A DNA stretch of 64,000 nucleotides from NCBI GenBank assembly GCA_035308425.1, contig DATGGP010000015.1:23521-87520 (forward strand). The letters run 5' to 3'. The position numbers were made by a program, and so were the translations under genes. This stretch comes from Casimicrobiaceae bacterium. Lineage in GTDB: Bacteria > Pseudomonadota > Gammaproteobacteria > Burkholderiales > Casimicrobiaceae. Below the pieces are notes generated by a model. It saw only the letters and a list, made by a program, of their open reading frames with translations. It searched no databases and was not told the DNA's origin. The first letter of the stretch is position 1, and each line of letters begins with the position of its first letter. Shown here piece after piece: positions 736-58,938 of the stretch.

Positions 736-851
736 CGAGCGGCCGAAGTGTCGCGATAACCGCGAACGCTCCAACGTTGCTTAGCGCCTGCCGCGGCTAT
801 GCACCGCGTGCAGGCGCGTGTTCCCCGATCGCCGCTCGACGATCGGACAGC

Positions 852-2469: not shown

Positions 2470-2490
2470 GTGCGCGGTTGCGTTAGCCGA

Positions 2491-2525
2491 CGGGGTGCCG
2501 GCGTCGGCCGGCACCCCGCGCCTTT
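2491..2525 (+). terminator. Putative intrinsic terminator after the SYLF lipoprotein gene
   Basis: Perfect 12-bp stem CGGGGTGCCGGC/GCCGGCACCCCG with 4-nt loop, but only a weak U-tract. Confidence 0.45.
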
Positions 2526-2666
2526 GCCTCCTCGCTCGTCTATCGAGCGGCCATGTCGCGCGACTCACCGTTCGCGATCAAGCGGCTTGCCGGGCAATGC
2601 ACGAAGTGAGCTTCCAGGTGCGCCGGCGAGTGCGCATCGCTCGCGCTAAACTCCGCAAAACGACAA

Positions 2667-5415: not shown

Positions 5416-7318
<1,903 letters not shown>

Positions 7319-38442: not shown

Positions 38443-38599
38443 CCCCCCACGCTCGCTCCACTCGCTGCCCCGCACCAGGAGTCACATGTCAGTCAACAGT
38501 TGTCAGAAGCGCCGGCGCGACGCGGCTTTCGGTGGCGCGCCATCCAGGTGCGGCTTGGCGCCGTGACTGAAAACTGTCAACTGACAACTGACAACTGAC
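38443..38599. repeat. Composite intergenic element, copy 1: leader + inverted CTGACAA heptamer arrays around a 60-bp core
   Basis: Leader CCCCCCACGCTCGCT..CTCGCTGCCCCGCACCAGGAG. Left arm 38487-38506; right arm 38567-38599 (CTGAAAA CTGTCAA CTGACAA CTGACAA CTGAC). Arms pair at 17/20. Confidence 0.9.
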
Positions 38600-39346
38600 G
38601 TGCGCCAACTTCTCCTCGACACCGAAACCACCGGCCTCGACCCGAAGCAGGGCCATCGGATCATCGAGCTCGCGGCGGTCGAGGTCGTGAACCGGCGCAT
38701 CACGGGGCGCCATCTGCACTACCGGCTCGATCCCGATCGCGACATTGACGCCGCGGCTACCGACGTGCACGGATTGACGCGCGACGACCTTCGCGGCAAG
38801 CCGCGCTTCGCCGACATCGCCGCCGAGTTCATCGATTTCGCGCGCGGCGCCGAATGGATCATCCACAACGCGCCCTTCGACATCGCGTTCTTCGACATCG
38901 AGCTCGATCTCGCCGGACTGCCGCGCTCGCCGTCGATCTACACCGCGCTCGTCGACACGCTCGCGCTCGCGCGCGAAAGCTTCCCGGGAAAGCGCAACAA
39001 CCTGGACGCGCTGTGCGAGCGCTTCGGCGTATCGAACGCGCATCGGACGCTGCACGGCGCGCTGCTCGACGCGCAGCTTCTGGCCGAGGTCTACCTCGCG
39101 ATGACGCGGGGACAGGAGAGCCTCGTCATCGACATGTACACGCCGGCGCCCGCGACCGAGGGTGCGCTGTCAACCGATGATCGCGGGATCGCGCGCGAGC
39201 GCTACGTCGTCCATCGAATCGTTGTCGACGCCGACGAGGTCGCCGCGCATCGCGCTTACCTCGAAGCGCTCGCCCGCGAGTGCAAGGCTGGCTGCCTGTG
39301 GCTTGCGCTCGAAACGGATGATGCGGCCGAAGTTGCGGCAGCGTGA
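38600..39346 (+). CDS. dnaQ: DNA polymerase III epsilon subunit
   Basis: LLLDTETTG, IHNAPFD, RNNLDALC and HGALLDAQLLAEVY motifs. GTG start without SD. Confidence 0.95.
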   Translation: MRQLLLDTETTGLDPKQGHRIIELAAVEVVNRRITGRHLHYRLDPDRDIDAAATDVHGLTRDDLRGKPRFADIAAEFIDFARGAEWIIHNAPFDIAFFDIELDLAGLPRSPSIYTALVDTLALARESFPGKRNNLDALCERFGVSNAHRTLHGALLDAQLLAEVYLAMTRGQESLVIDMYTPAPATEGALSTDDRGIARERYVVHRIVVDADEVAAHRAYLEALARECKAGCLWLALETDDAAEVAAA

Positions 39347-39385
39347 ACGAGCCTTCGACCTGCATCCCATAGCGCGACGCGCGCG

Positions 39386-39835
39386 ATGGAGGTAATCCTG
39401 TGGCGGCACTGCGACGCCGCGCCCGGCGTGCCGGACGAGTCGCGCACGCTCACACCGCGGGGTCTTCGTCAAGCGGAAGCGATGGCGCGTCGGCTTCTTT
39501 CGCGATTGCCCGCCGATTGCCGCATCATCGCGTCGCCCGCGGTGCGCGCGCAGCAAACCGCGCAGACGCTCGGCCACGCGTTTGTGACCGATCAACGCCT
39601 CGCGTCCGGCGCCGAGCCGGAAGACGTGCTCGCCGCGATCGGCTGGCCCGACGCGGGCGGCACGGTGCTCGTCGTCGGCCACCAGCCGACGCTCGGACGT
39701 GTTGCATCGCTCGTGCTCGACGGCGAAGCCGACGATCGCACCATGCGAACCGGCGAAGCACTCTGGCTTTCGAGCGGTGAAGACGATGGTTCGCGCGCGA
39801 TGCTCGTTCGCAGCATGGCACCCGATGTGACTTAA
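39386..39835 (+). CDS. sixA: SixA-like phosphohistidine phosphatase
   Basis: LWRHCDA, SPAVRAQQTA and LVVGHQPTL motifs of the histidine phosphatase superfamily. Confidence 0.85.
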   Translation: MEVILWRHCDAAPGVPDESRTLTPRGLRQAEAMARRLLSRLPADCRIIASPAVRAQQTAQTLGHAFVTDQRLASGAEPEDVLAAIGWPDAGGTVLVVGHQPTLGRVASLVLDGEADDRTMRTGEALWLSSGEDDGSRAMLVRSMAPDVT

Positions 39836-39917
39836 GCGAGGGTTTCATCCGGATGCGGATGCGAGAAGCGCGCCTGCTACTCTCGATAGTTGCCGGCACG
39901 TTTCACGCCGCATCCAG

Positions 39918-41432
39918 ATGCCGACCGACTACCTCCAGAAAATCCTTACCGCGAAGGTCTACGACGTCGCGGTCGAAACACCGCTCGAGCTCGCGCCGGC
40001 GCTTTCGGCGCGCCTCGGAAATCGCCTGCTTCTGAAGCGCGAGGACGAGCAGCCGATCTTCTCGTTCAAGCTCCGCGGCGCGTACAACAAGATGGCGCAC
40101 ATGAGCGCTGCCGAGCGCGCGCGCGGCGTCATCGCGGCCTCCGCCGGCAATCACGCGCAAGGCGTCGCGCTCGCGGCGCAACGGCTCGGTTGCGCGGCGA
40201 CGATCGTCATGCCGATCACCACGCCACGAATCAAGGTCGCGGCCGTCGAGGCGCGCGGCGCAAACGTCGTTCTGCACGGCGATTCGTATTCGGAAGCGTA
40301 TGAAAGGGCGCAGGCGCTCGAAAAGGAGCTTGGCGCAACCTTCGTGCATCCGTACGACGACCCGGACGTCATCGCGGGACAGGGCACGATCGGGATGGAA
40401 ATCCTGCGCCAGTGGCAGGGTCCGCTCGACGCGATCTTCGTTGCGATCGGCGGCGGCGGCTTGATCAGCGGCATCGCCGCGTATGTGAAGCGCGTGCGGC
40501 CCGACGTTGCGATCATCGGCGTCCAGCCCGAGGACTCCGATGCGATGGTGCGCTCGATCGCGGCCGGCCGGCGCGTGACGCTGCCGCATGTCGGGCTCTT
40601 CGCCGACGGAGTCGCGGTCAAGCAGGTCGGACGCGAGACGTTTCGCCTCGCGCGTAAGTACGTCGACGAGATCGTCGTCGTCGACACCGACGCGACGTGT
40701 GCCGCGTTGAAGGACGTCTTCGAGGACACGCGCGCGATCCTCGAGCCAGCCGGCGCGCTCGCGATCGCCGGCGTCAAGGCCTGGGTTTCGAAGAAGCGTG
40801 CGAAGGGCGAGACCTATGTTGCCGTCGCGTGTGGCGCCAACATGAACTTCGACCGCCTGCGCTTCGTCGCCGAGCGGGCGGAGCTCGGAGAGCAGCGCGA
40901 GGCGATTCTCGCGGTGACGATACCCGAGCGGCCGGGGAGCTTTCGCGAGTTCTGCGCGCTGCTCGGCAAGCGGTCGATCACAGAGTTCAACTACCGTTAT
41001 GCGGATCCCTCGGTCGCGCACCTGTTCGTCGGCATCGAGGTCGCCGACCGGGGCGAAACCGATCACCTGCTGTCGGCGCTGCGACGTGCGCGGATCGAGG
41101 CTTACGACCTCTCCGACAACGAGATGGCGAAGCTTCACGTCCGCCACCTGGTCGGCGGCCATGCACCGGCGGCCGAGCACGAGATCCTCTATCGCTTCGA
41201 GTTCCCGGAGCGCCCGGGCGCCCTGATGCGCTTTCTCGACCGGATGAGCGCGCGCTGGAACATCAGCTTGTTCCACTATCGCAACCACGGCGACGACTAC
41301 GGCCGCGTGCTCGTCGGGATGCAGGTGCCCCCCGGCGACAGCGCCGCCTTCCGCGCCTTCCTCGACGGGCTGGGCTACGACTACGTCGAGGAAACGGCCA
41401 ATCCCGCGTACAGGATGTTTCTCGGCCGCTAG
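39918..41432 (+). CDS. ilvA: Threonine ammonia-lyase, biosynthetic
   Basis: LKREDEQPIFSFKLRGAYNK and SAGNHAQG motifs; two C-terminal regulatory domains (FPERPG). Confidence 0.96.
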   Translation: MPTDYLQKILTAKVYDVAVETPLELAPALSARLGNRLLLKREDEQPIFSFKLRGAYNKMAHMSAAERARGVIAASAGNHAQGVALAAQRLGCAATIVMPITTPRIKVAAVEARGANVVLHGDSYSEAYERAQALEKELGATFVHPYDDPDVIAGQGTIGMEILRQWQGPLDAIFVAIGGGGLISGIAAYVKRVRPDVAIIGVQPEDSDAMVRSIAAGRRVTLPHVGLFADGVAVKQVGRETFRLARKYVDEIVVVDTDATCAALKDVFEDTRAILEPAGALAIAGVKAWVSKKRAKGETYVAVACGANMNFDRLRFVAERAELGEQREAILAVTIPERPGSFREFCALLGKRSITEFNYRYADPSVAHLFVGIEVADRGETDHLLSALRRARIEAYDLSDNEMAKLHVRHLVGGHAPAAEHEILYRFEFPERPGALMRFLDRMSARWNISLFHYRNHGDDYGRVLVGMQVPPGDSAAFRAFLDGLGYDYVEETANPAYRMFLGR

Positions 41433-41560
41433 AGGGGCCCCTTCGCAAGCGCGGAGGCCGATTCAGGGCGCGTCATCTCATGCCGCGGAACGGCAACGGG
41501 GCGGGAAAAAAGCTGTGTTCTTTGTTGCGTTTTCGCCCGAATCGAAGCGCAACGCGGATT

Positions 41561-41577
41561 CCGGCAAGCTTTATGCT
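41561..41577 (+). promoter_or_regulatory. Possible sigma54 (-24/-12) promoter upstream of pilG
   Basis: CCGGCAAGCTTTATGCT has GG-N10-GC spacing resembling TGGCAC-N5-TTGCW. Confidence 0.3.
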
Positions 41578-41660
41578 CTAGGCAACCGGCCCGGGCCATG
41601 GCAGACTCGGGTTCGGTGCGGCGCCGCATGCCGCGTGATCGCATGCAAGTGACCTTGCCG

Positions 41661-42068
41661 ATGGGGAACGACATTCCAAGCGCGAGCCCGCTCGCAGGCA
41701 TCAAGGTGATGGTGATCGACGACTCGAACACCATCCGCCGAAGCGCCGAAATCTTCCTGCTTCAGGCCGGCTGCACCGTCATCCTGGCCGAGGATGGGTT
41801 CGACGCACTCGCCAAGATCGCCGACCACCAGCCGGACATGGTGTTCGTCGACATCATGATGCCAAGGCTCGATGGCTACCAGACGTGCGCGCTCATCAAG
41901 AAAAGCAGCCGCTTCCATGCGACGCCGGTCGTGATGCTTTCTTCGAAGGACGGACTCTTCGATAGGGCGCGCGGGCGGATGGTCGGCTCCGACCAGTACC
42001 TGACGAAGCCGTTCACCAAGGAAAGCCTGCTGAAGGCCGTGTCCGCGCACGTGCGCGCGGCGGCGTAA
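41661..42068 (+). CDS. pilG: Twitching-motility response regulator PilG
   Basis: KVMVIDDSNTIRRSAEIFL, DIMMPRLDGYQTC and YLTKPF motifs. Start could be 41643. Confidence 0.92.
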   Translation: MGNDIPSASPLAGIKVMVIDDSNTIRRSAEIFLLQAGCTVILAEDGFDALAKIADHQPDMVFVDIMMPRLDGYQTCALIKKSSRFHATPVVMLSSKDGLFDRARGRMVGSDQYLTKPFTKESLLKAVSAHVRAAA

Positions 42069-42160
42069 GGGCGCCGCGCATGACGGATCCCGGCCATACC
42101 ACCGCGCGGGCGATCGTCGCGGAAGCCCGTTCGAGCGAGCCCGGCCGGAAGGGAGCTACG

Positions 42161-42526
42161 ATGGGCATCAAGAGAATCCTGATCGTCGACGATTCAGCGA
42201 CCGAGCGCCACATGCTGAAGGACCTTCTGACGAAAGCCGGTTACGACGTCATCTCGAGCGAGAACGGCGAGGACGCGATCGTCAAGGCGCGCCAGGTCAA
42301 GCCCGACCTGATCCTGATGGATGTCGTCATGCCGGGCTTGAACGGCTTCCAGGCGACGCGCGCGATCAGCCGTGATCCCGAGACCAGATCGATCCCGGTC
42401 ATCATGTGCACGTCGAAGAGCCAGGAAACGGACAAGATCTGGGGCCTTCGCCAGGGCGCGAAGGACTACGTGGTGAAGCCGGTCGATCGCGAGGCACTGC
42501 TCGCGAAGATCGCCTCGCTCGGCTGA
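42161..42526 (+). CDS. pilH: Twitching-motility response regulator PilH
   Basis: [25 protein letters not shown] and SQETDKIWG motifs; GGGAG RBS. Confidence 0.92.
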
Positions 42527-42557
42527 AAGCCGGCGCAAACGCTCCCGCCACGACGCC

Positions 42558-43079
42558 ATGTCTCGCGCCGCCCGCCTCGATCTGCGCTCGTTCCAGCAGG
42601 AGCTGGCGACACGGCTCGCGAGCAAGACGGCGGCGCAGGTCGAATCGTCGCGGCTCGGCGTCGGCTGTGGCGGCGCACGCTACCTGATCCGCCTGGGCGA
42701 TGCGGGCGAGGTGATCGCCGTGCCGCCGGTCGTTCCGGTGCCGCTCACAAAGGCCTGGTTTCTCGGGCTCGCGAACATTCGCGGCAATCTGGTGAGCGTG
42801 ATCGACTTCGCGGCGTTCCAGGGCGAGGCGCCCCTTGCGCTCGGCGGTCTCGCCCGCCTGATCGTGCTTTCGACGAGAAATGGCTTCGAGCGCGCCGGCA
42901 TCGTCGTCGAACGCGTGCTGGGCCTTCGCAATCTCGCGCAGTTCGAGCGCGACCAGCTTCCCGAACGCGCGCCCGCGTGGCAGATCGGCGCATGGCACGA
43001 CGCGGAGGGCTGCATCTGGCGGGAAATGGACCTCGGCACGCTTTCGCGCGACCCGGCGTTCCTGCAGGTCGGTACATGA
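42558..43079 (+). CDS. pilI: CheW-like coupling protein PilI
   Basis: [24 protein letters not shown] motif; position in pil-chp operon. Confidence 0.9.
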
Positions 43080-43215
43080 GCGCGACGGGCCGTCCAGTGA
43101 GCGCGACGAGCCGCTTGCGAGTGCGAATTGGCCCCGAAGCGCGCAGCGCGGAGGGACGTCCAAGGGGGCAATCGCTGCACAGACACCGGGACTCCAGGTC
43201 CGGGGAGGCACCGTG

Positions 43216-45417
43216 ATGGCACTCAAAATGGCGAAGCTGTTCGGCGGCGAAGGGCGCGCGGCGGAGAACATGGACTTCGACGTGCCGACGACGCAGGTGC
43301 GCATGGGCATCCGTTCTCCGGAAGGATTCGATCCGCTGACGGCGATGTCGAGCACGGACACGATGCGCACGGCGAGCAACACGCCGCCGCCGTCACGCCT
43401 TCCGCTGATCGGCAAGCTGCCGGTCGTCCGCCAGTTCCAGATCCTCGGCGTGCTGACGGTCGCGTTCGTCGCGATCGCCGTATTCCTGGTCTACCTCGAC
43501 AATCGCGCCGCCACGCAGCGGGCGTTGCATTCGTCGGCGGCCACGGAGATGCAGATGCTGTCGCAGCGGCTTGCGCGCGGCTCCGCACTCGCCGCGCAAG
43601 GGCAGGCCCTTGCGTTCGCCGCGATTCGCGAAAGCCGCGAGCGTTTCAAAGCCGACCTGCGCGCGCTCGCTTCCGGCGGCCCGTTTCGCGGTGCGACGCT
43701 CGATCCGACGCAGGACCCCGGCGCTGTCGTCACGCTCAATGCCATCAAGACGCGCTGGGAACGCGTCGATGCCGCCGCCTCGCGCCTAGTCGACAACGAG
43801 AAGAGCTTGACGTCGCTCGCGCGCGGCCTTTCCTCGATCAACAGCGGCAACAGCGCGCTGCTCGAGCTTTCGCAGCAGGCCGCGCAACAGATCGGACAGG
43901 GAGGCGGGGCGCTGCGCGAGGTCGATTACGCGAACCAGCTCGCGATCCTGTCGCAGCGCATCGCGAAGAACGCGAACACGCTCGCCTCCGCCGACGAGAT
44001 CGATCCCGAGGTCGCATTCCTCTTCGGCAAGGACGCCTCCGCGTTTCGCGATGTCGTCAACGGTCTTCTGAAGGGTAGCGATGCGTTGCGCCTGCCGCCG
44101 GTCAAATCGGACGACGCGCGCACGACGCTCGTCGAGCTCGCGAAGCGCTTCGGCGATTACGAGAGCGCCGTCAACGCGATCCTCGCCAACATGGCGAACC
44201 TCGTCGTCGCGAAACAGGCGGCACGCAGCATCAACAACGATTCGGACGTTCTGCTCAACGACTCGACGACGCTCGCCCAGCAATACGAGGCGGTCGACGC
44301 CGCGCATCCGCTGACGCTCGGGCTCGCGATCGGCTTCGGCGTGATCGCGCTCGCATGCCTCGCGTTGATCGCGAAAGTGTTCCTCGACGACGCGCGCATC
44401 CGCGCCGAGGACAGCGAACGCGAGAACAAGCGCAATCAAGAAGCGATTCTGCGGCTGCTGAACGAGATGGGCAACCTCGCGGACGGCGACCTGACGGTGC
44501 AGGCGTCGGTCACCGAGGACGTGACCGGGGCGATCGCCGATTCGATCAACTTCACGATCGAGGAATTGCGCACGCTCGTGCGCGGAATCAACTCGGCGAC
44601 CGAGCAGGTGACGAAGGCCACGCAGGAGACGCAGGCGATCTCCAATCGTCTGTTCGAGGCGTCGCAACGCCAGAACCGCGAGATTCAGCAGGCGTCGGCG
44701 TCGGTTCTGACGATGGCCGAATCGATCAGCGAAGTGGCGAGCAATGCCGCGCAGTCGGCGAAGGTCGCGCAGACGCAGCTCGCGGCTGCCGAGAAGGGCG
44801 GCAGCGCCGTGCAGAACCAGATCGCGGGCATGAACGACATCCGCTCGCAAATCCAGGAGACGTCGAAGCGGATCAAGCGCCTCGGCGAATCGTCGCTCGA
44901 GATCGGCGAGATCGTCGAGTTGATCGCGGACATCACCGAGCAGACGAACGTGCTCGCGCTCAACGCCGCGATTCAGGCGGCCTCCGCGGGCGAAGCGGGG
45001 CGCGGTTTCACGGTCGTCGCCGAGGAAGTGCAGCGGCTTGCCGAGCGCTCCGGCGAAGCGACCAAGCAGATCGAAGCGATCGTCAAGACGATTCAGGCCG
45101 ATACGCAGGATGCTGTCGCGGCGATGGAAAAGTCGACCGTCGGCGTCGTGGAAGGCGCGAAGCTTTCCGATGCCGCGGGCGGGGCGCTCGCGGAAATCCA
45201 GCGCGTGTCGCGCGAGCTCGCGGCGCTGATCGGGCGTATCTCCGCGCAGACGCAGCGCCAGTCGTCGTCGGTGACCGATGTGACGCGCGGCATGCAGGGC
45301 ATCCTGCGCATCTCCGAAGAGACGACGGACGGCACGAAGCAGACGAACGTGTCGATCGGCCAGTTGACGAAGCTCGCTGCCGAGTTGCGTAGCTCGGTCG
45401 CGGGATTCAAGGTTTGA
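43216..45417 (+). CDS. pilJ: Methyl-accepting chemotaxis protein PilJ
   Basis: Two TMs flanking PilJ periplasmic domains, HAMP, and signalling tip [33 protein letters not shown]. Confidence 0.93.
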
Positions 45418-48400
45418 AAAGCCTCGCGATGGAGAGCGCGCGCGTGCTGACGGAAACCGCACCGGAGTTCGACCTCGGTCCGCTCACCTGGGTGCAGGGC
45501 GAGATCGACGAGGCGTTGTCGCGCGGAAGCGATGCGCTCGCGTCGTTGCGAGCCGCGCCCGGCGACACGAACGCGCTCAATCACGCGCGCTCGCATATCC
45601 ATCAGGCGGCGGGCGCGATCCAGATGGTGAGCCTCGATGGCGTCGTCGCGTTCACCGACGAGATCGAGCGGCACGTGAGCCGCATGCAGGAGCTTTCCGC
45701 CGATGCGATGCCGGCCGCCGTCGACGTCGTCGTGCGCGCTGTCGATCGACTGCGCGTCTTTCTCGATGAGGTCGCGAACGGCGCGCCGCCGATACCGCTC
45801 GCCCTGGCGCCCGAGTACGAGGCCATGCGTCGCTCGCGCGGCTGCGAGACGACGTCGGCCGCCGATCTTTTCTATCCCGAGCTCAACGTCCGATCGCCGC
45901 GGCCGTCGCCTGCGGAGATCATGCCCGCCGCGCGGCTTTCGTCGCATCTTGTCAAGGAGCGGCGCCAATATCAGCGCGGATTGCTCGAATGGCTGCGCGG
46001 CGCGCCAAGCGGCGCGGCGATGATGCGCGAGGCGATCCTGTCGATCGAGGACGTGACGGCGCAGCCGGCGCTTCGCGCGTTCTGGTGGACCGCGGGCGCG
46101 CTCCTCGACGCGCTCGAGAAGAACGCGATCGAGCCCTCGTTCAACGTGAAGCAGCTCGTCGCGCGGATCGACATGCAGATCCGCCGCGTCACCGAAGGAA
46201 GCGCGAAAGTCGCCGATCGCCTGCGTCGCGAGGTGCTCTACCAGATCGCGATGGCGAAGCCCGCGACGCCTTCGATCGAAGCGGTGCAGCGCACGTATCG
46301 CCTGGCGGCGCTCGTGCCCTCGCCCGAGGCGCTCGATGCCGACATGGTGCGCATCAAGCCACTGCTGCGCGAAGGGCGCGATCAGATCGCGGGTGCGAAG
46401 GACGCATGGCTCAAGGCCGCATCGGGACGCGGCGAAGGCAACGCGAAGGTCGCGCAGCTTCTTGCCGCGGCGCATGCGAAGGCGCGGGACATCAACCATC
46501 CGGCGCTCGTGAAACTGACGGGCGGTCTCGTCGAGCGCTTCTCGACGTTGCCGGCGAGCGACGCGTCGGAACCGCTCGCGATGGAATTCGCGACGGCGCT
46601 CCTGCTCGCCGAAAGCGCGTTCGAGAACTTCGGCAATCTGTCGCGCGATTTCGACGCGCAGGTCGATGCGATGCTCGCGAGGCTTTCGTCGGCGAACGCG
46701 GGACAAGCCGCGGGCGCGCCGGTGCTCGACGAGATGTCGCGCCGCGCGCAGGAACGCGTGCTGTTGTCGCAGGTGTTGCGCGAGGTGCAGGTGAACCTGC
46801 GTCACATGGAGCAGGTGCTCGACGCGTTCTTCCGCGATCACACGCGGCGCGCCGATCTCGCGGGCCTCGCCAAGGAGAGCCGGCAGATTCGCGGTGCGCT
46901 TCGGATGCTCGAGCTCGACCATGCCGATCGCCTGCTCGCGCTATGCGAAGCGCAAATCGAAAGTTACGCGGACCCGACAACGCCGGTCGACGAGGAAGGT
47001 CTCGAGCTTCTCGCCGAATCGCTGTCGGGTCTCGGTTTTTATATCGAAGCGGTGCTGCATCAGCGACCCGATCGCGAACGCATCATCGCGCCGCTGATCG
47101 CCAAGCGCGAAGGCGCCGCGCCGCCGCCGGTCCTGGTCGAAGCGTCGGTCGAGGAATCGGTCGCCGAATTGCGCGCCTCGCTGCCGAAGCTTCTGGCCGA
47201 CGTGCGCGACGCGCCGTCCGATCCGCTCGCACGCGGCGAGTTGCGCGAGAAGCTCGTCGCCCTTCGCGACGACGCCGATCTAATCGGTGACAGCGAGCTC
47301 GTCGCGCAAGTCAAGACGGCGATTCGCGAGATCGACGGCGGCGCCGGCGAATCCGCGCTCGCGGCGAGCGTCGATCTCATCGTCGAATCGGGCACGGCGC
47401 CGGCGCCGGCGATCTCCGAGGAAACGCAGCGGCTGCTCGCCACCGACGCGAGCGCCCTCGACGCGGAGCTTCTCGACATCTACCTGACCGAGGCGAACGA
47501 AGTGCTCGACACGGTCGATGCGCATCTCGCCGTGCTCCAGCATTCGCCGGGCGAACGTGACGCGCTCGTCACCGTTCGCCGCCAGTTTCATACGCTGAAG
47601 GGCAGCGGGCGCATGGTGGGCCTGACCGGGTTGGGCGACCTCGCATGGGGCGTCGAGCGCGCGCACAACCGCGTTCTCGAGGAGGATCGCCGCGTCACGC
47701 CGAACATGCTCGCGTTGATCGGCGTCGCCGCGACGTCGTTTCGCAAGTGGGTCGGAGAGTTGCGCGAGAACGGTCGTTTCGCGACCGACGCGGCGCCGCT
47801 GCTTGCCGCGATTCGTGCGGTCGAGACGGAATGGCCGGGCTCGAGCGCCGCTGATTCGCACACGATCGCGACACAGGACGTTGCCATCGCGCACGAGCGC
47901 GGATCGAAGGATGTCGCGGCCGCGCCGGTGGCCGAGTCGCATGACGCGAGCGAAATTTCCGAAGAGGCCGCGAACGCGCCGGACCTCGAGCTCGTCACGT
48001 TTCCCGAGCTCGGCGCGCCGCTCGCCGACGACGCCACGCCGACGGTCACCGTGCTCGAGCAATCGCTCGGCGAGACGATCGACGTGGGACTTCCGCTCGA
48101 TTCGCGCGATGCAGGCAAGCCGATGCTTCGGGTCGTCGCCGACAATACTTCGACGCACGCAGGCGATGCGCGCGCGCGTCCGCCTTCGGGGCACGCGCGC
48201 GACCTGACGCTTCTAAGCGACGCATCGCGCGCCGAACCTTCGACGACACCGGAGTCCGACGAGGTCGCGTTCGGCGACGTGCGCCTGTCGTCGTCGCTGT
48301 GGCGAATCCTGTGCGACGAAGCGGAGCAGCACATCGCGCTCCTGCAGCACGAGATCTCGGTGTTGCAGTTCGATCCCGAGCATTGGCCGATCGCGACGAT

Positions 48401-51400: not shown

Positions 51401-51476
51401 CGTCAGGCGTTTCCTCGGCAAGCCGTACCAGGAGGACGAACTGCTGGGTGCGATGCGCGGGGTACTGCGTCCGTGA
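45414..51476 (+). CDS. chpA: Hybrid CheA-like kinase ChpA/PilL (multiple Hpt, HATPase, CheW, REC)
   Basis: 2020 aa; Hpt motifs [10 protein letters not shown] and [31 protein letters not shown]-terminal VDDSLTVR...DIEMPRMDG. Start TTG 45414 or ATG 45429. Confidence 0.93.
48900..49049 (+). repeat. Degenerate 15-bp (pentapeptide) tandem repeat inside chpA
   Basis: Encodes [50 protein letters not shown]. The last six units are clearly related at the DNA level (GAAATCGCATCATCG-like). Confidence 0.75.
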
Positions 51477-51477
51477 T

Positions 51478-52437
51478 CTAAACCGTATGCAGCCCTCTCG
51501 GCGGCTGCCCGACCGGCTCCCATTCGATCCGCTCGTATTCGGCGATCACCTGTGCGCCGAAGAGCAGCACGATCGCCGCGAGCTCGAGCGACAGCAGCAC
51601 GACGATCGACGTCGTGAGCGATCCATACACCGTCTGCACCTGCGACAGTGTCGCGAAGTACCAGACGAGAACGTGACGCGATATTTCCCATAGAATCGTC
51701 GCGCTGCCGCCGCCGATCAGCGCGTGGCGCCACGAAAGACGTCCCACCGGCATGACAAAGTAGATCGACGCGAGGACGAACACTTCGCCGAGCACGCCGA
51801 TCAGGTAAAAGAGCGTGCGCGACACGACGGAGAGCGACAGCTCGTGGCCGAGCACGTCGAGCCGCGCGAGCGCGAGCGATTGCAGCGCGCCCGCCATCAG
51901 CGTCACGACGAGCAAGCCCACGCCGAGCAGCAGAATGTAGAGATAGGGAATCAGCACCGAGATCATGAACGGGCGCCGGCGCTTCAGCACCCGGTGGTAG
52001 AAGATCACCGACATCGCGGTCTCGAGCACCGAGAACGCGAGCGAGCTGAAGAAGATCAGCGTGATGGCGAGCGTCCAGCCGATCACCTCGCGATGCGCGA
52101 TGAATGCGCGAAGCTCGCGGATCAGGGGCGCCGATTGTCCCGGCGCCACGATTTCGAGATAACGCGCGAGCGTGGCCATCAACTGCCCGGCATCGATGGC
52201 ATGCGAGAGGATGATCACGAGCAGGATCATCAGCGGCACGATCGACAGCAGCGTGTAATAGGCGACGCCGCCCGCCAGCAGCAGACCCTGATTGGCGCGA
52301 AACGCGCGGATCGTCGACAGCGCGAATCCGAGCGGATCGCGCGCGATCTTGCGCGCCGCGCGGGAAACTCCGGGCCGGGGAGCCGCGCTGTCGCGCACCT
52401 CGTCGATGCCGTTCCGTCGTCGGGGCGGCGACTGCAT
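51478..52437 (-). CDS. YihY/BrkB family membrane protein
   Basis: AGGVAYYTLLSIVPL and YGSLTTSIVVLLSL..AAIVLLFGAQV motifs; multiple TMs. Start approximate. Confidence 0.88.
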   Translation of the reverse strand: MQSPPRRRNGIDEVRDSAAPRPGVSRAARKIARDPLGFALSTIRAFRANQGLLLAGGVAYYTLLSIVPLMILLVIILSHAIDAGQLMATLARYLEIVAPGQSAPLIRELRAFIAHREVIGWTLAITLIFFSSLAFSVLETAMSVIFYHRVLKRRRPFMISVLIPYLYILLLGVGLLVVTLMAGALQSLALARLDVLGHELSLSVVSRTLFYLIGVLGEVFVLASIYFVMPVGRLSWRHALIGGGSATILWEISRHVLVWYFATLSQVQTVYGSLTTSIVVLLSLELAAIVLLFGAQVIAEYERIEWEPVGQPPRGLHTV

Positions 52438-52552
52438 CCTACCTGCTTCGCGAAAGCGGAGCGTGCCGCTTGTGCTCGATGCAACGCGCTCGGGCTGACA
52501 GGAGCAGACATCGGCGGTACATTTCCCTCCATACCCGACGAAGGAGACGACG

Positions 52553-54604
52553 ATGGCGGATTACGCGACGGAAAACATTCGTACCGTAGCGTGGGTGGGC
52601 GACGGGGGTGCGGGCAAGACCACCCTCGTCGAGGCGCTGCTTGCAAAGGCGGGCGCGATTCAGGCCGCGGGCAGCGTGGAGCGGGGCAGCACCGTCAGCG
52701 ATTTCGACCCGCTCGAGAAGACGTATCAGCATTCGCTTCGCGCGTCCGTCGTCCATCTCGAGACCGATGGCACGCGCATCCACATGATCGACACACCGGG
52801 GCTGCCCGACTTCATCGGACAAGCGATCGGCGCGCTCGATGCGGTCGAAACCGCGGCCATCGTGGTCAATGCCGCGACGAGCGTTCAGATGATTGGCGCG
52901 CGGATGATGGAATGGGCGGGCGAGCGCAAGCTTTGCAGGCTCGTCGTGATCAATCGCATCGATGCCGAGAACGTCGACCTGCCCGCGGTGCTGGAAGCGG
53001 TGCGCACGGCATTCGGCAAGGAATGTCTGCCGATCAATCTGCCCGCCGACGGCGGCAAGCGCGTCGTCGACTGCTTCTTCAACCCTTCCGGGGATTCCGA
53101 TTTTTCGTCGGTCGAGCACGCGCATGGCGCGCTGGTCGATCAGGTCGTCGAGGTCGACGAGGAACTGATGTCGCTCTACCTCGAGCAGGGCGAGGTCGCG
53201 CCCGAGCAATTGCATGCGCCGTTCGAGAAGGCGTTGCGCGAAGGGCATCTCGTTCCGGTCTGTTTCGTCTCGGCGCGCACAGGCACCGGCGTCTCGGAGT
53301 TGCTCGACATCCTGGTCAAGCTCGCGCCGAACCCCGCCGAGGGCAACCCGCCGCTTTTCATCAAAGGGGAGGGCGAAAGCGCGACGGAGTTCCATTCGGC
53401 GCCCGATCCGAAGCTGCACGTGCTCGCGCACGTCTTCAAGGTCGTGGTGGACCCGTTCGTCGGCAAGCTCGGCGTGTTTCGCGTCCATCAGGGGACCGTG
53501 ACGCGCGACACGCAGCTTTTTGTCGGCGACGGCCGCAAGCCGTTCAAGGTCGGACATCTCTTCATTGTGCAGGGAGGAAAATATATCGAGATCGACCGCG
53601 CGGTGCCCGGCGATCTCGCGGCGATCGCGAAGGTCGACGAGATCGTGTTCGACTGCGTGCTGCACGACTCGCACGACGAGGATCAGATCCACATGCGGCC
53701 GCTTCGCTTCCCGGTGCCGATGCATGGCTTCGCGATCACGCCGAAGCGCCGGGGCGACGAGCAGCGCATTTCCGACGTGCTGCACAAGATGATCGCCGAG
53801 GATCCGACGCTCGTCGTCGCGCACGACGCCGTAGCGAACGAGACGGTGCTGCGCGGCTTGGGCGAGCTCCATTTGCGTTCGGTCTTCGAGCGGATGGCGA
53901 CGCAGTTCAAGCTCGAGGTCGAGACGCGTCCCCCACGCGTGCCCTATCGCGAGACCGTCACCGCGAAAGCCGAAGGCCATCATCGGCACAAGAAGCAGAC
54001 CGGCGGTGCGGGGCAGTTCGGCGAAGTGTATTTGCGCATCGAGCCGCTACCGCGCGGCACGGGCTTCGAGTTCGTCGATCAGGTGAAGGGCGGCGCGATT
54101 CCGAACACGTTGATCCCCGCGGTGCAAAAGGGGGTCGAGCAGGTGTTGACCGCCGGGCCGGTCGCCGGCTTCCCGCTGCAGGACGTGCGCGTGACCGTCT
54201 ACGACGGCAAGTATCACCCGGTCGACTCGAAGGAGGTCGCGTTCGTCGCGGCCGGTCGCAAGGCGTTCCTCGATGCGATCGGGAAGGCGAAACCGATCGT
54301 GCTCGAGCCGATCGTCGGCGTCGAGATCAATTGCCCCGCGAACACGATGGGCGATGTCGCCGGCGACCTGTCATCGCGGCGCGGCCAGGTGACCGGCACG
54401 CAGACGCTGCAGGCGAACATGCTCGCGGTCAACGGCTACGCCCCGCTTGCCGAGCTCGACGGCTACGCCGCGCGCCTCAAATCGATGACCGGCGGCCACG
54501 GCGCCTGGACGATGTCGCTTTCGCATTACGAGCAGGCACCGCCAAATCTGCAGAGCCAGCTCGCGACCGAATATGCGAAGCATCGGCGGCACGAGGAGGA
54601 GTAG
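52553..54604 (+). CDS. Elongation factor G paralogue (EF-G2/FusA-like)
   Basis: 683 aa; GDGGAGKTT, DTPG, NRID, LRGLGELHL, KKQTGGAGQFG and YHPVDS motifs. Lacks the canonical RGITI effector motif. AAGGAG RBS. Confidence 0.92.
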   Translation: MADYATENIRTVAWVGDGGAGKTTLVEALLAKAGAIQAAGSVERGSTVSDFDPLEKTYQHSLRASVVHLETDGTRIHMIDTPGLPDFIGQAIGALDAVETAAIVVNAATSVQMIGARMMEWAGERKLCRLVVINRIDAENVDLPAVLEAVRTAFGKECLPINLPADGGKRVVDCFFNPSGDSDFSSVEHAHGALVDQVVEVDEELMSLYLEQGEVAPEQLHAPFEKALREGHLVPVCFVSARTGTGVSELLDILVKLAPNPAEGNPPLFIKGEGESATEFHSAPDPKLHVLAHVFKVVVDPFVGKLGVFRVHQGTVTRDTQLFVGDGRKPFKVGHLFIVQGGKYIEIDRAVPGDLAAIAKVDEIVFDCVLHDSHDEDQIHMRPLRFPVPMHGFAITPKRRGDEQRISDVLHKMIAEDPTLVVAHDAVANETVLRGLGELHLRSVFERMATQFKLEVETRPPRVPYRETVTAKAEGHHRHKKQTGGAGQFGEVYLRIEPLPRGTGFEFVDQVKGGAIPNTLIPAVQKGVEQVLTAGPVAGFPLQDVRVTVYDGKYHPVDSKEVAFVAAGRKAFLDAIGKAKPIVLEPIVGVEINCPANTMGDVAGDLSSRRGQVTGTQTLQANMLAVNGYAPLAELDGYAARLKSMTGGHGAWTMSLSHYEQAPPNLQSQLATEYAKHRRHEEE

Positions 54605-54623
54605 CGAAAAGCGCGATCGCAAC

Positions 54624-54687
54624 GGCGATTCACCTGGAAACTCGGGCCCCCGGCGGTTCAAAGCGGGACGAGCTCTACGAGGAACGC
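54624..54687 (+). pseudogene. Relic of an antitoxin C-terminus (VapC partner)
   Basis: With one -1 frameshift it reads GDSPGNSGPRRFKRDELYEER, resembling the G..RF.RDELY.R C-termini of antitoxins upstream of PIN toxins. Confidence 0.45.
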
Positions 54688-54765
54688 ATCGCCGTTATCG
54701 ACCGCGATGAGAGCGACGAGCTGTGCGGATCGCGAACCGCGTGCCCGTTGGCGCTGGCCAGGCGC

Positions 54766-55050
54766 GTGAGCCCTGCGAGTCGCGCCAAGGGCGAGCACGT
54801 CTTCGTCGATACGAACATCTTCGTCTACGCCGACGACCGAAGTGCGAAGGCGAAGCGGCCCCGTGCGCGAGCGGCGCGACTAAATTCGTGAGCGCCGCGA
54901 AATAATCCTCGGGGCTATCGACCTCCATCGGTTGCACAAGCTCTCCTTTTGGGATGCGCTGGTCGTCAAAGCAGCGAGCGCAACGGGTTGCCCGCGCCTG
55001 CTGAGCGAAGATCTCGCCGACGGCCAGGCTATCGACGTCCGTCGTCAAAA
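54766..55050 (+). pseudogene. vapC: PIN-domain (VapC) toxin pseudogene
   Basis: VFVDTNIFVYADD (stop at 54891), then in another frame HKLSFWDALVVKAA..GCPRLLSEDL.DGQ; the middle of the domain is missing. Confidence 0.8.
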
Positions 55051-55791
55051 CTCGTACTCGACCTGCGCGCGGAACGTCCTCGCCGGCGCTGCGTCGGACA
55101 GTCTGAACAGCACCGCCGCGTCGTACTTCAGCACCTGCCGGCCGCCGAGCGGGAACTTGCCGAAGATCGCCGGCCCCGCCATGTGCTCCTGCGCTCGCGC
55201 GGGCGCCCAGTCGTTCCACTGACCGACCTCGCCGAATCCCTGTGCGCCGAAATCGAGCGCCGGCTGCCACCGGTAACGAAGCTGCCATTGGTATTCGAGC
55301 TCGGTGACCTCGGGCTCGCTCGCGTGATAGTGGCGTTCGAGAAACACGTTGAAATTCGCCTGTACGGGCCCGAAGTCCTTCTGCATCAACGGTCCGATCC
55401 GCAACTCGTAACCTTCGGCGTGATCGTGAGGAAACTCGGTCTCGACGAGCAGCCCGAAGTCGGCGAAATACTGGCCGGGCTCGGTCAACTGAAATTTGTT
55501 TTCCCATTCGACTGCGTCGAAGCTCGTCGCGCCGCTGCGATGCCATTTGCCGTAGATCTCGGTCGCCCACCACGGCGTCACGCCATAACCGAACGCGAGC
55601 GACGCCGCCGATTGACGATGCGGATCGTCGGTCGGGCTCGCAGTCCCGAGCCGAAGCTCGATCTCGCGCTCGCCGTATTCGACCGCCGGCACCGCAACGT
55701 AGTCGTCGGGATCGGCATGCGCGAGCGGCGCGAGCGACAACAGCGGAAGCGCAGCGGCGACGATCGCCAGCACGTGCGCGGGCGTTCTCAT
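55045..55791 (-). CDS. Putative outer-membrane beta-barrel protein
   Basis: 248 aa; signal peptide ending AHA, alternating amphipathic segments, C-terminal VEYEF (BAM-type terminal Phe). ATGA-coupled to the cupredoxin gene. Confidence 0.75.
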
Positions 55792-56123
55792 TGCGCGACC
55801 ACGATGCCTTGCGCCGTGTCGGCGTGGAATTCGCCCATGAACGAATAGCGTCCGGGCGCAAGCGGGCCGATGAAGACCGTCGCTTTCGATTTGCCAGCGA
55901 TCACTTTTTCGCGATTGAGCGCATGGCTGTCGAACTCCTCGGGTGTCGCGTCCTGGTTGTCGACGACGAGCTTCACCTTCGTGTTCGCCGGGATGCGGAC
56001 CTCGGCGGGCGTGAACTTGTGGTCGCGAATGGTCAGCGCGAATTCGGGCTCGCCGGCGGCCTGCGCGAGGCCGACGGCGCACGCAAGCGCGAGCGACAGC
56101 AAGAGGCGGATCGGCACGGTCAT
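55788..56123 (-). CDS. Periplasmic cupredoxin-domain protein, FtrB/EfeO-cupredoxin-like
   Basis: 111 aa; GAGGAG RBS, signal peptide, [23 protein letters not shown] and [11 protein letters not shown] motifs. Confidence 0.88.
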
Positions 56124-56149
56124 CTCCTCGGTTCTAGGTTTGAAACGAG

Positions 56150-56168
56150 GATGATAACCATTCTCATT
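56150..56168. promoter_or_regulatory. Fur box
   Basis: TGATAAC-C-ATTCTCA (56152-56166) matches the 7-1-7 consensus TGATAAT-N-ATTATCA at 12/14; about 30 nt upstream of the cupredoxin start. Confidence 0.8.
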
Positions 56169-56297
56169 CGCATGCGACAAGCGGTTTGGACGGACGGTCA
56201 ACGTTCGCTGGCGCCCTGTTCGGTCGCGCTTGCGGCCGGCCTTCGATTGTGCGGGCCGGGGCGCGCCGGCTACAATTCGAGTCGAGTGGGCGAATCG

Positions 56298-56849
56298 GTG
56301 AACCTCACACACCATTTCCTGATCGCCATGCCGGCCATGGCCGATCCCCACTTCGCCAATTCGCTCACCTATGTCTGCGAGCACAACGACGAGGGAGCGC
56401 TCGGCATCGTCATCAACAAGCCGATCGACCTGACGCTCGAAGCGCTGTTCGAGCAGATCGAGATTCCGCTTTCCGACCGCGCGCTGTCCGAGGCGCAGGT
56501 CCACTTCGGCGGGCCCGTCCAGCTCGACCGGGGATTCGTGCTGCATCGGCCGATCGGCAACTGGCAGTCGACGCTTCCGATCCACAACGAGGTCGGCCTG
56601 ACGACGTCCAAGGACGTGCTCGAGGCGGCCGGCCGCGGCGAGGGCCCGAAGGATATGTTCGTATCGCTCGGCTACGCCGGCTGGCAGGCCGGGCAGCTCG
56701 AGCACGAGCTCGCGCAGAACGCGTGGCTCACCGTCGAGGCCGACCCCGACGTGCTCTTCGATCTGCCGGCCGAGCGCCGGCTACCCGCCGCGGTGCGCTT
56801 GCTCGGGATCGACATTTCGCGGCTCTCCGATACCGCCGGCCACGGGTGA
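56298..56849 (+). CDS. yqgE: YqgE/AlgH family protein
   Basis: [29 protein letters not shown] and [17 protein letters not shown] motifs. GTG start. Confidence 0.92.
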
Positions 56850-56856
56850 GCGTGCG

Positions 56857-57279
56857 ATGGGACCGGACGCGACCGTGCTCGCGTTCGATTTCGGTACGCG
56901 GCGGATCGGCGTCGCCGTCGGCAACACGTTGACGCGCACCGCGCATCCGCTCGCGACGATCGAGGCCGCGGATTCGCGCGCGCGCTTCGCGTCGATCGGC
57001 GCGCTGATCGGGGAATGGCAGCCGGCGCGCCTTGTCGTAGGCCTGCCCGTTCATGTGGATGGCAGCGAGCACGCGATGACCGGCAAGGCGCGCGCCTTCG
57101 CCGGCGAGGTTTCGCGTCGCTTCGCCTTGCCCGTCGAATTCGAGGACGAGCGGCATTCGTCGCAGGTCGCGCGCGAAACGCTCGCCTCGCACGGACGCGG
57201 CGGACGAACCGACCGAGCGCTGCGCGACCAGGTCGCCGCGCAGATCATCCTGCAGGCCTGGCTCGATCGGAACGCATGA
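56857..57279 (+). CDS. ruvX: Pre-16S rRNA nuclease / Holliday junction resolvase-like RuvX
   Basis: LAFDFGTRRIGVAVG, VVGLP, EDERHSS and DQVAAQIIL motifs. Confidence 0.93.
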   Translation: MGPDATVLAFDFGTRRIGVAVGNTLTRTAHPLATIEAADSRARFASIGALIGEWQPARLVVGLPVHVDGSEHAMTGKARAFAGEVSRRFALPVEFEDERHSSQVARETLASHGRGGRTDRALRDQVAAQIILQAWLDRNA

Positions 57280-57815
57280 ATCAGGAACAAGCGCTGCCCG
57301 ATGCGGAACACGCGCTCGCGACGCTCGTCCTGCGCATGGGCGGCGCCGTCGCACACGATGCGGCGCTCGTCGGCATCTATTCCGGTGGCGCGTGGGTCGC
57401 CGAGCGGCTCGCCGCGCAATTGCCCGGTGCGCACCCACTCGGATTCATCGATGTCTCCTACTATCGCGATGACTACGAGATCTCGGGACTCAAGGCGAAC
57501 GCTCGGCGCACGTCGCTGCCGTTCGACGTCGCGGGCGCGTCGATCGTGCTGATCGACGACGTGCTCTACACCGGGCGCAGCGTGCGCGCGGCGATCAACG
57601 AGCTCTTCGACTTCGGGCGACCCGAACGGATCGAGCTCGCCGTTCTTGTCGACCGCGGCGGCCGCGAGCTTCCGGTCGAGCCGACGTACACCGGCGCGCG
57701 CCTTGCCGTCGCGCGCGATCTGTCGATCGTGCTGTCCCGCGATCCGGACGGGAAACTCGCTTTCGGCGTCGAGCCCGCGCGTCGGCGCGAGCGGGCCGAG
57801 CCGCGCGCGCGATGA
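57276..57815 (+). CDS. pyrR: PyrR uracil phosphoribosyltransferase / pyr regulator
   Basis: [24 protein letters not shown] and VDRGGRELP motifs. Confidence 0.93.
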
Positions 57816-57822
57816 CACGCGC

Positions 57823-58785
57823 ATGACTCGCAATCCGCAGATCAACCGCAATGGCGAGCTCACGCATCTGCTGACGCTCGAGGGTCTTCCGCCCGCGATC
57901 ATCACGCACATCCTCGACACCGCCGATCCTTTCGTGTCGATCGCCGAGCGCGAGGTCAAGAAGGTGCCGCTGCTTCGCGGCAAGGCGATGTTCAACCTCT
58001 TCTTCGAGAACTCGACGCGCACGCGCACGACGTTCGAAATCGCGGCCAAGCGGCTCTCCGCCGACGTGATCAACCTGAACATCGGCGTCTCGTCGACATC
58101 GAAGGGCGAGACGCTGCTCGACACCGTCGACAATCTCTGCGCGATGAACGCGGACCTTTTTGTAGTCCGACATTCCCAGTCGGGTGCGCCGCACCTGATC
58201 GCGTCGCATTTGACGCAGACCGGCCGCACGCACGTGCATGTCGTCAATGCCGGCGATGGCCGCCACGCGCATCCTACGCAAGGGTTGCTCGACCTTTACA
58301 CGATCCGCCACTACAAAAAGGAGTTTCGCGAGCTGACCGTCGCGATCGTCGGCGACATCCTGCATTCGCGCGTCGCGCGCTCGCTGATCCACGGACTCAC
58401 GACGATGCAGGTGCCACGCGTCCGCGTGATCGCCCCGCGTACGCTCTTGCCAACGGCGGTGCAATCGCTCGGCGTCGAGGTCGTGAATGACATGCGCGAG
58501 GGCCTTCGCGGCTGCGATGTGATCGTCATGCTGCGCCTGCAAAGCGAGCGGATGAAGGGGGCGCTTCTGCCCTCCGCCGGCGAATACTTCAAGCATTACG
58601 GACTCACCGCCGAGAAGCTCGCGCTCGCGAAACCCGACGCGATTGTCATGCATCCGGGACCGATGAATCGTGGCGTCGAGATCGATTCGTCGGTCGCGGA
58701 CGGTGCGCGCTCGGTGATCCTGCCACAGGTCACGTTCGGCATTGCTGTGCGAATGGCCGTGCTGTCGATCATCGCCGGAACATAG
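57823..58785 (+). CDS. pyrB: Aspartate carbamoyltransferase catalytic subunit
   Basis: [29 protein letters not shown] and [12 protein letters not shown] motifs. Confidence 0.96.
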
Positions 58786-58795
58786 ATGACGACCT

Positions 58796-58937
58796 CCACG
58801 CTCGCTGCCGCACGCCAGGAGCCAGTTGTCAGTTGTCAGTAAAGCCGTCGATCGCGCGTGAATCGCCCGCCACCGAAGACGACACAACGCCGCCGCGTCT
58901 GACAACTGTCAACTGTCAACTGACAACTGCCAACTGA
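58796..58937. repeat. Composite intergenic element, copy 2: leader + inverted CTGACAA heptamer arrays around a 59-bp core
   Basis: Leader CCACGCTCGCTGCCGCACGCCAGGAG. Left arm 58823-58839; right arm 58899-58937 (CTGACAA CTGTCAA CTGTCAA CTGACAA CTGCCAA CTGA). Arms pair at 16/17. Confidence 0.9.
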
Positions 58938-58938
58938 G

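Follow-up and report, generated by a model that had tools for sequence, protein, structure and literature searches.

A lineage-restricted family of palindromic intergenic repeats with CTGNCAA heptamer arms at start codons in a Casimicrobiaceae genome

In a 64,000-nucleotide stretch of DNA (the window; C15:23521-87520) from a soil bacterium of the Casimicrobiaceae (Burkholderiales), two intergenic loci, one preceding a DnaQ-type exonuclease gene (copy 1) and the other lying between pyrB and the dihydroorotase-like gene pyrC' (copy 2), raise the question of whether a small DNA segment is being switched there or whether a repeat has settled in either direction. Both loci have the layout given in a preliminary description of the window, namely a leader, inverted TTGNCAG/CTGNCAA heptamer arrays, and a GC-rich core of about 60 bp between them, and this layout was recovered (Table 1). 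The same description considered the loci to be a two-copy element with a core that is flipped from one copy to the other. Analysis of the complete metagenome-assembled genome (G000; 4.57 Mb, 65% GC, 86 contigs) showed instead that both are members of a family of non-autonomous, palindromic repeats, intergenic in location and restricted to this lineage. Taken as a whole, the results suggest that this is probably a mobile, mosaic palindromic repeat with heptamer arms at start codons, amplified in this lineage, for which a role in translation is proposed.

The number of copies in the genome does not agree with a two-copy element. Forty-eight arms with at least two perfect heptamers were found at approximately 34 loci, about 20 of which are inverted pairs of arrays around a core. 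Thirteen are full two-armed copies with a homologous core (E<1e-6), seven on the plus strand and six on the minus strand, to which one partial copy can be added; about 20 further loci are partial, one-armed, or equipped with another core, and some of the other two-armed loci have cores that are different or interrupted. The one-armed modules (about 14) follow a fixed form, consisting of a GC hairpin, CCACCGAAA, about 12 nt, (CTGNCAA)n, and the start codon. The heptamer is CTGNCAA (CAACTGN in the other phase), with N being A (69), T (47), C (16), or G (4), and a degenerate arm end, CTGACTCCTG, recurs at many arm ends on both sides. With a size of 100-170 bp, terminal inverted repeats, many copies, and no coding capacity, the elements have the properties of MITEs (miniature inverted-repeat transposable elements). 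The cores share a mean pairwise identity of 75% (range 63-92%) and a hairpin, GCGCGC(C/G)-ATTCA-(G/C)GCGCG, with a stem of 6-7 bp in which one compensatory pair, C:G to G:C, divides the copies 8 versus 4; their alignments contain 1-2-nt indels that disrupt any reading frame. Copies 1 and 2 fall into different subfamilies: the core of copy 2 is 85-87% identical to those on contigs C3, C27, and C36, and the nearest relative of the copy 1 core, on C54, is 79% identical. An Rfam search (E<=1) with window positions 38300-59100 and with relatives' junctions carrying the generic repeat discussed below returned nothing relevant, and none of the papers searched contains CTGACAACTGACAA or TTGTCAGTTGTCAG.

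To what extent the two cores are related only in inverted form depends on the level at which the question is asked. The figures given earlier were reproduced, with 20/25 identities in the TTCGGTGG block once one core is reverse-complemented, and with 34/59 identities over the ungapped core pair after reverse complementation versus 22/58 on the same strand. As a claim about this pair alone, homology is marginal, the local alignment score of 25 (shuffle mean 17.8, sd 3.2) being reached by 81 dinucleotide shuffles out of 2000 and by 61 out of 5000 59-mers drawn at random from the genome. At the family level the claim is solid: when the genome was searched with a core profile derived from ten of its other copies, neither window copy included, copy 2 was matched on the minus strand and copy 1 on the plus (E values in Table 1). 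Since these matches on opposite strands were obtained without the window copies, the inverted relationship of the two cores is real.

The "flipped core" is one copy in each orientation of a single element. Because the two ends of the element are mirror images, each being an inverted copy of the same heptamer, the element can occur either way round, leaving the arms identical and the core reverse-complemented. Relative to the transcription of the neighbouring genes, nine full copies are in the orientation of copy 1 (type A) and four in the opposite one (type B). Five copies are accompanied by leader remnants, located on the ACGCGGC side of the core in four cases and on the opposite side in copy 2, so that the comparison of core orientation with leader called for in the preliminary description uncovered both orientations (4:1) and no single fixed one. 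Copy 2 alone is flipped within a leader-linked subfamily of four members whose cores are 85-92% identical. Because it shares this close subfamily with three of the four other leader-linked copies, a past inversion of the hairpin module via its arms is plausible; insertion the other way round is so too, the two routes being indistinguishable here.

The distribution of the repeat among relatives points to its recent amplification. The pattern (CTGNCAA)x3 has 40 matches in this genome, compared to 0-1 in 34 of 36 congeners and 11 in another (G009); among 400 further Burkholderiales it is substantial only in a member of another family (G117), with 17 matches. Both G009 and G117 have the same arm architecture and closeness to start codons with unrelated cores, so that it is the arms and not the core that are conserved across lineages. 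The closest relative (G018; DnaQ 94% and PyrC' 91% identical) has one heptamer element only, which is orthologous to the most diverged copy here (C74:65065). In that relative the pyrB-pyrC' junction is empty (TAGgccATG), as it is in most of 80 relatives, where the stop and start codons overlap or are a few nt apart; empty alleles at this junction, which had been suggested as a check, are thus common. In related strains represented in soil runs X3 and X5, 22 nt replace copy 2 and 20 nt replace copy 1. Empty sites, together with one element in the sister species versus many here, amount to the presence/absence polymorphism of MITEs. The second of the two readings first offered, a non-autonomous element lying either way beside the leader, was therefore essentially right, in that a multicopy palindrome occurs in both orientations at sites that are empty or differently filled in orthologous positions. 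Amplification in this lineage appears to have been recent and may have proceeded by transposition or by gene conversion into resident hairpins.

Similar arrays also surfaced in soil metagenomes. In all four that were examined, the summed contig depth was 700-3300 on the arms at window positions 38566-38617 (dnaQ) versus about 2-100 in the flanks, and 45-244 versus about 0-40 at 58890-58941 (pyrC'). Many loose ends of soil contigs run on as further heptamers, and such arrays seem to be common in soil communities. Copy-number polymorphism of the heptamers was not observed in the soil-run contigs.

Table 1. Features of the two heptamer-armed loci (positions are those of the window)
Feature	Position	Strand	Remarks
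PP2C-phosphatase gene upstream of copy 1, stop codon TAA	38433-38435		
Copy 1 leader remnant (CCCCCCACGCTCGCTCCACTCGCTGCCCCGCACC)	38443..38476	+	5' module of the generic mosaic repeat family, which is abundant
Copy 1 left (upstream) arm, degenerate	38477..38506	+	AGGAGTC ACATGTC AGTCAAC AG; sole perfect TTGTCAG at 38500-38506
Copy 1 core, type A orientation	38507..38570	+	nhmmer E=4.5e-7, profile without window copies
TTCGGTGG inside copy 1 core	38528-38535		
Copy 1 central hairpin	38536-38552		CGCGCC-ATCCA-GGTGCG
Copy 1 right (start-proximal) arm	38567..38599	+	CTGAAAA CTGTCAA CTGACAA CTGACAA CTGAC
DnaQ-type exonuclease gene	38600..39346	+	GTG start directly 3' of arm; Pfam RNase_T, E=1.4e-33
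pyrB stop codon TAG	58783-58785		OTCace domains identify pyrB
Copy 2 leader remnant (ATGACGACCTCCACGCTCGCTGCC GCACGCC AGGAGCCAG)	58786..58825	+	Starts directly after pyrB stop
Copy 2 left (upstream) arm	58826..58839	+	2 TTGTCAG units
Copy 2 core, type B (reverse complement of copy 1 orientation)	58840..58898	-	nhmmer E=2.2e-11, profile without window copies
Copy 2 hairpin, plus strand	58853-58869		CGCGCG-TGAAT-CGCCCG
CCACCGAA following copy 2 hairpin	58870-58877		
Copy 2 right (start-proximal) arm	58899..58938	+	CTGACAA CTGTCAA CTGTCAA CTGACAA CTGCCAA CTGAG
Dihydroorotase-like (PyrC') amidohydrolase gene	58939..60213	+	ATG directly 3' of arm; Pfam Amidohydro

At both window loci, the final TGA of the right arm is located 1 nt upstream of the start codon, and neither the dnaQ start (in a scan for Shine-Dalgarno (SD) motifs) nor the pyrC' start is preceded by an SD motif; the DnaQ N-terminus was aligned in relatives. 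A 6-bp direct repeat, AGATGA (58781-58786 and 58937-58942), brackets the leader and hairpin of copy 2 and could represent either a target-site duplication or simply stop/start context.

This arrangement is typical of the family. A script placed 28 of the 48 arms, and inspection by eye about 32, immediately next to the start codon of a gene whose reading direction points away from the element; approximately nine abut a gene end, where in several cases a TTGACAG unit supplies the stop codon TGA, and two abut tRNA genes. The usual form of the arm is (CTGNCAA)n-(CTGACnn)0-3-CTGAC-ATG/GTG or, in the other phase, (CAACTGN)n-CAACTGA-N-ATG. When SD motifs were scored by the definition used for the TAACTGA direct repeats (MacGregor 2015, Front Microbiol 6:1397, PMC4679880), they were present at three of the 28 arm-abutting starts. 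In 18 of these 28 cases, the end of a TGA falls between -1 and +1 nt from the start, versus 5% of background open reading frame (ORF) starts; it falls exactly 1 nt before the start in 12-13 cases, versus 1.9%. The elements occupy operon junctions and 5' leaders, and the outward array replaces the SD region. The genes downstream are unrelated housekeeping genes, encoding DnaQ, PyrC', ribosomal protein S13, HU/IHF, TrmD, PurF, GltX, HisZ, SecE, and PilT.

The start-proximal arm contains more perfect units than its partner in nine of the 13 full copies, an equal number in three, and fewer in one (Wilcoxon p=0.006), and this holds for both core orientations. Arm asymmetry is thus a property of the gene context and not of the element, which explains how it can keep its orientation while the core is inverted. 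The earlier observation that leader and arm asymmetry stay fixed while the core flips stands for both window copies; what does not stand is an intrinsic polarity, since the asymmetry tracks the downstream gene.

Two consecutive junctions of the infA-rpmJ-rpsM ribosomal-protein cluster (C62:11980-12230) contain elements, with a partial core before rpmJ and a two-armed element with a different, short core before rpsM. Heptamer-armed elements were also located between two tRNA genes (C32:111878-111944) and between secE and a tRNA gene (C52:14247-14502), indicating that the family also occupies the spacers of untranslated RNA operons.

The leader does not belong to the heptamer element; it forms the 5' module of another mosaic repeat family, the more abundant of the two. 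Its resemblance to a CCCCCACGCTC...TCGCTGCCCC repeat of Burkholderiales genomes, pointed out in the preliminary description, proved genuine, that family being abundant in this genome and in other Casimicrobiaceae. The genome has 112 occurrences of the leader seed CCCACGCT[CT][GA], including a few chance ones within genes. A typical copy reads GACCCCCACGCTCGC..GCTCGCTGCCCCC..GGGGG, continues into a terminal hairpin (e.g., GTCAGTCGC-TCGGGGCGGCCCTTC-GCGACTGAC), and often ends directly at a start codon. The heptamer hairpin occupies the usual place of the leader family's own terminal hairpin (GTCAGTCG...CGACTGAC), and its arms resemble the generic stem (GTCAGT.G vs GTCAGTTG). In several other Casimicrobiaceae, one or two tandem copies of the leader family fill the pyrB-pyrC' junction, and at the dnaQ junction of G018 the orthologous leader is followed by a generic hairpin (...GGGGGCGGGTCGGTGCCTCGGGACGGCCCGCCGGGACTGAC-ATG, ending CTGAC-ATG) and not by the heptamer hairpin. 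The heptamer hairpin is an exchangeable 3' module of a mosaic element: the same leader is found with different hairpins, the heptamer hairpin in place of the generic one, so that the architecture is mosaic in the manner of bacterial interspersed mosaic elements (BIMEs). In this genome the leader is joined to the heptamer hairpin both ways (4:1); at other sites here, as in G018, it has another hairpin attached.

The generic leader family (CCCCCACGCTCGC..GCTCGCTGCCCCC..GGGGG plus hairpin, about 100 copies) has in its own right the appearance of a mini-cistron (e.g., C28:~7230-7308, C6, C27, C45, C48, and C82:110517-110660; in relatives L002 and L004, about 1300-1500). Ten copies are exact 28-codon ORFs (MSAKGRPERELRPLRGQRSGEAASVGAQ*) with a TGA that overlaps the ATG of the next gene (CAATGA). 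Copies lying the other way start with ATGA, at the stop codon of the gene before them, and finish in CTGAC-ATG.

The translational role proposed for the heptamer element can be outlined as follows. Elements would be co-transcribed with their operons, and in the mRNA the inner heptamers would pair into a stem, with the surplus start-proximal units possibly remaining single-stranded as a CA-rich landing or re-initiation pad. The array would place a TGA 1 nt before the start, and at least three consecutive CTGACAA units would give TGA in all three frames. The dnaQ array has such an all-frame run (CTGACAA CTGACAA CTGAC), but not every array does, and most also hold CTGTCAA, CTGCCAA, or CTGGCAA units, in which this strand lacks a TGA. 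The downstream gene would then go on being translated without an SD motif, and expression of previously coupled genes would be preserved; SD-free translation maintained in this way could make insertions tolerable. In RNA folds, the arms are paired and the start codons lie outside the arm-arm stem.

Several results weigh against the reading of the family as a mobile mosaic repeat with a translational role. Cores that are 63-92% identical document no very recent movement. Inspection of the flanks revealed no transposase beside any array, no systematic search for insertion sequences (IS) having been made, and neither a target-site rule nor a consistent target-site duplication emerged, AGATGA being present at copy 2 only and absent from copy 1 and the other copies inspected. 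Genes resembling REP-associated tyrosine transposases (RAYTs; REP, repetitive extragenic palindromic) are present in this genome, with a repeat other than this one on their flanks. The z-scores of the folds are modest (about -2), and the variable middle base of paired heptamers is often non-complementary between the arms, suggesting that a perfect stem is not under strong selection. Finally, contigs, the sole data, could conceal a low-frequency active inversion, an active inverton being unlikely.

An argument from arm covariation was dropped in view of these middle bases. A link to RAYTs and REPINs was likewise rejected: the repeats flanking the Y1_Tnp genes at C75:12498 and C74:103615 are GGTGCCAGAGATGCATTT repeats, neither heptamers nor the leader. 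The first of them, a RAYT-like Y1 transposase gene adjoining uvrA (C75:12498-12839), has inverted GGTGCCAGAGATGCATTT repeats on both sides and represents a separate REP-type system.

A more specific version of the mobile-repeat reading, possible but doubtful, is that the arrays are the functional termini of a mobile hairpin that carries its own SD-independent translation module and can therefore land in coupled operon junctions without silencing the next gene. The upstream arm would provide TTG start codons on the mRNA strand and the downstream arm TGA stops, the last of them 1 nt before the real start; all frames would be covered only with three or more consecutive CTGACAA units. As the element is palindromic, this supply of starts and stops would hold in both orientations, and the start-proximal arm may grow by slippage and be selected as a single-stranded landing pad. 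If correct, this would provide the first vehicle and the first mechanistic rationale for the YAACTGA repeats of Beggiatoaceae, Cyanobacteria, Bacteroidetes, and now Burkholderiales.

Other signs of translation within the element did not survive scrutiny. A small upstream ORF led by an SD motif was rejected, AGGAG being the reverse complement of the recurrent arm end CTGACTCCTG and the 1-2-nt indels in the core alignments excluding a conserved peptide. The absence of stop codons from a core is no evidence of translation either, given that 60 nt at 70% GC are expected to hold only about one. A register of SD, 4 nt, and NTG-TCA-G recurs in three leader-linked copies (copy 1, copy 2, and C36:163876) and is used only by a speculative relay idea.

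The non-random position of the arrays directly upstream of start codons that have lost their SD motifs, the retention of the heptamer consensus across lineages with varying cores, and the constant polarity of one-armed modules toward the gene would also fit a cis-regulatory leader selected by the host, in which the arrays are bound by a protein with affinity for RNA or DNA (S1, Csp-like, CsrA-like, or other), a post-transcriptional regulon results, and the core is accessory; the same proposal was published for the TAACTGA repeats (PMC4679880). This explanation is unlikely, given that the downstream genes lack functional coherence and that presence or absence varies between the closest species at conserved housekeeping junctions. 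Moreover, copies are found between tRNA genes, where translation is irrelevant, and half of each two-armed element is wrongly oriented for such a site.

It is very improbable that the repeat is a REP-type element acting in mRNA stabilisation or termination, unconnected in any special way with start codons and close to them only because intergenic spacers are short. Extragenic, GC-rich, multicopy palindromes in operon junctions would be expected under this explanation, as would arms that touch or include the upstream gene's stop codon, of which there are some. However, 28-32 arms face gene starts versus approximately nine facing gene ends, the reverse of the 3'-end preference of classical REPs; the TGA-N-ATG register exceeds background more than 20-fold; the start-proximal arm is consistently the longer one; the hairpins are not followed by a T-run; and the RAYT-like genes are flanked by another repeat.

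Least credible of all is an active mini-inverton, in which a site-specific recombinase flips the approximately 60-bp core between the heptamer arrays and thereby switches expression of the downstream gene, even though a short segment flanked by inverted repeats (TTGNCAG/CTGNCAA), with its core both ways relative to a fixed leader, copy 2 as the flipped member of a close leader-linked subfamily, and two serine recombinase genes in the genome speak for it. No dedicated invertase was found: as already stated for the window, no recombinase gene lies near any copy, and the only Resolvase-family genes, the two serine recombinases, are on C80 and C81, contigs without arrays. At least 13 loci each have one assembled orientation, and such fixed, differing orientations fit a repeat family; the contigs of X1 and X2, the two soil runs in which the organism is present, show the window orientation only and no strand-changing joints, although contigs drop minority forms. 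With no recombinase nearby, no inverted form in these contigs, and a many-locus distribution, switching through the heptamer repeats, as first envisaged, has no support. The arm asymmetry goes with the gene under either core orientation, phase variation is unlikely to target housekeeping genes (dnaQ, rpsM, and secE among them), and a 60-bp segment is very short for invertase synapsis. The core has no Rfam match and, by eye (no promoter scan of the core was run), no correctly spaced sigma-70-like -35/-10 pair. A promoter in the arms was also considered, TTGACA being contained in the TTGACAG units; by inspection, no -10 element stands at the correct spacing.

Among known repeats, the arms most resemble the TAACTGA direct repeats described in marine Beggiatoaceae, Cyanobacteria, and Bacteroidetes, which in BOGUAY form 169-170 sets of 2-6 copies each, most of them oriented forward toward a start codon, with a single inverted case (PMC4679880). 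The largest class of these ends 1 nt upstream of the start, and an SD motif is present in only about 10%; the downstream genes show no functional pattern, copies occur inside ribosomal-protein operons, and some overlap the ends of upstream ORFs (PMC4679880). Their distribution is patchy, and no transfer mechanism is evident (PMC4679880). The present arrays share the forward register, the 1-nt gap, the rarity of SD motifs, the 2-6 units, the unrelated genes, the occurrence in ribosomal-protein operons, and the patchy distribution, and CAACTGN matches TAACTGA at six of seven positions when N is A, which is a resemblance and not an identity. Where TAACTGA begins with T, the unit here begins with C, and its last base varies (A>T>C>G); the host belongs to a GC-rich lineage of soil Betaproteobacteria, and the arrays are mostly inverted pairs, or half-pairs, around a conserved GC-rich hairpin core, with homologous cores and empty sites that make a vehicle for spread visible. 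The family looks like a mobile variant of the TAACTGA-type repeats and not like a DNA switch.

In architecture, the closest classes are REP/BIME mosaics and MITEs. BIMEs of enterobacteria combine palindromic REP units with other motifs in mosaics. Like them and like the REPINs of Pseudomonas (PMC3116915), the present elements are numerous extragenic GC-rich palindromes that occur in either orientation, in mosaics with other motifs, and at operon junctions; unlike REPs and REPINs, they have arms of tandem heptamers, are biased to gene 5' ends and start codons and not to 3' ends, and have no associated RAYT. With bacterial MITEs such as the Correia (Neisseria) and ERIC elements (PMC3184786), they have in common the size of 100-170 bp, non-autonomy, terminal inverted repeats, either orientation, presence/absence polymorphism, and presumably co-transcription with neighbours and a capacity for long RNA hairpins. 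They differ in that no parent IS or transposase is linked to them, no consistent target-site duplication is present, and the termini are variable-number tandem 7-mers prone to slippage.

Tandem 7-nt units dispersed intergenically at many loci also recall the short tandemly repeated repetitive (STRR) sequences of cyanobacteria, heptanucleotide repeats reportedly described by Mazel et al. in 1990. The STRR term is in use (PMC2670836); STRR heptamers are different, however, and are not described as inverted pairs around a core or in a start-codon register. The heptanucleotide simple sequence repeats in the 5' region of hmw1A and hmw2A in Haemophilus influenzae (PMC8262952, PMC12721329) are likewise 7-nt tandem repeats in a 5' leader, where copy number could tune expression via RNA structure and processing, but hmw is an adhesin contingency locus with graded phase variation, whereas a dispersed housekeeping family is concerned here.

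TAACTGA-type arrays were described in 2015. To the question of their origin, spread, and function the present genome adds a vehicle, a palindromic element with homologous cores and with empty sites in sister species that went from one copy in G018 to dozens here; a local sign of selection or biased slippage, the longer start-proximal arm whatever the orientation; and a host range widened to GC-rich soil Betaproteobacteria. Annotation is also affected, as starts preceded by arms and lacking SD motifs may be misplaced by gene callers. Three arm-adjacent genes, encoding an ABC ATPase, an HldE-like adenylyltransferase, and a membrane protein, have no in-frame ATG, GTG, or TTG near the conserved N-terminus; at their loci (C9:23392-23412, C74:79478-79498, and C66:17151-17164), the only candidate start is the in-frame CTG of a degenerate heptamer.

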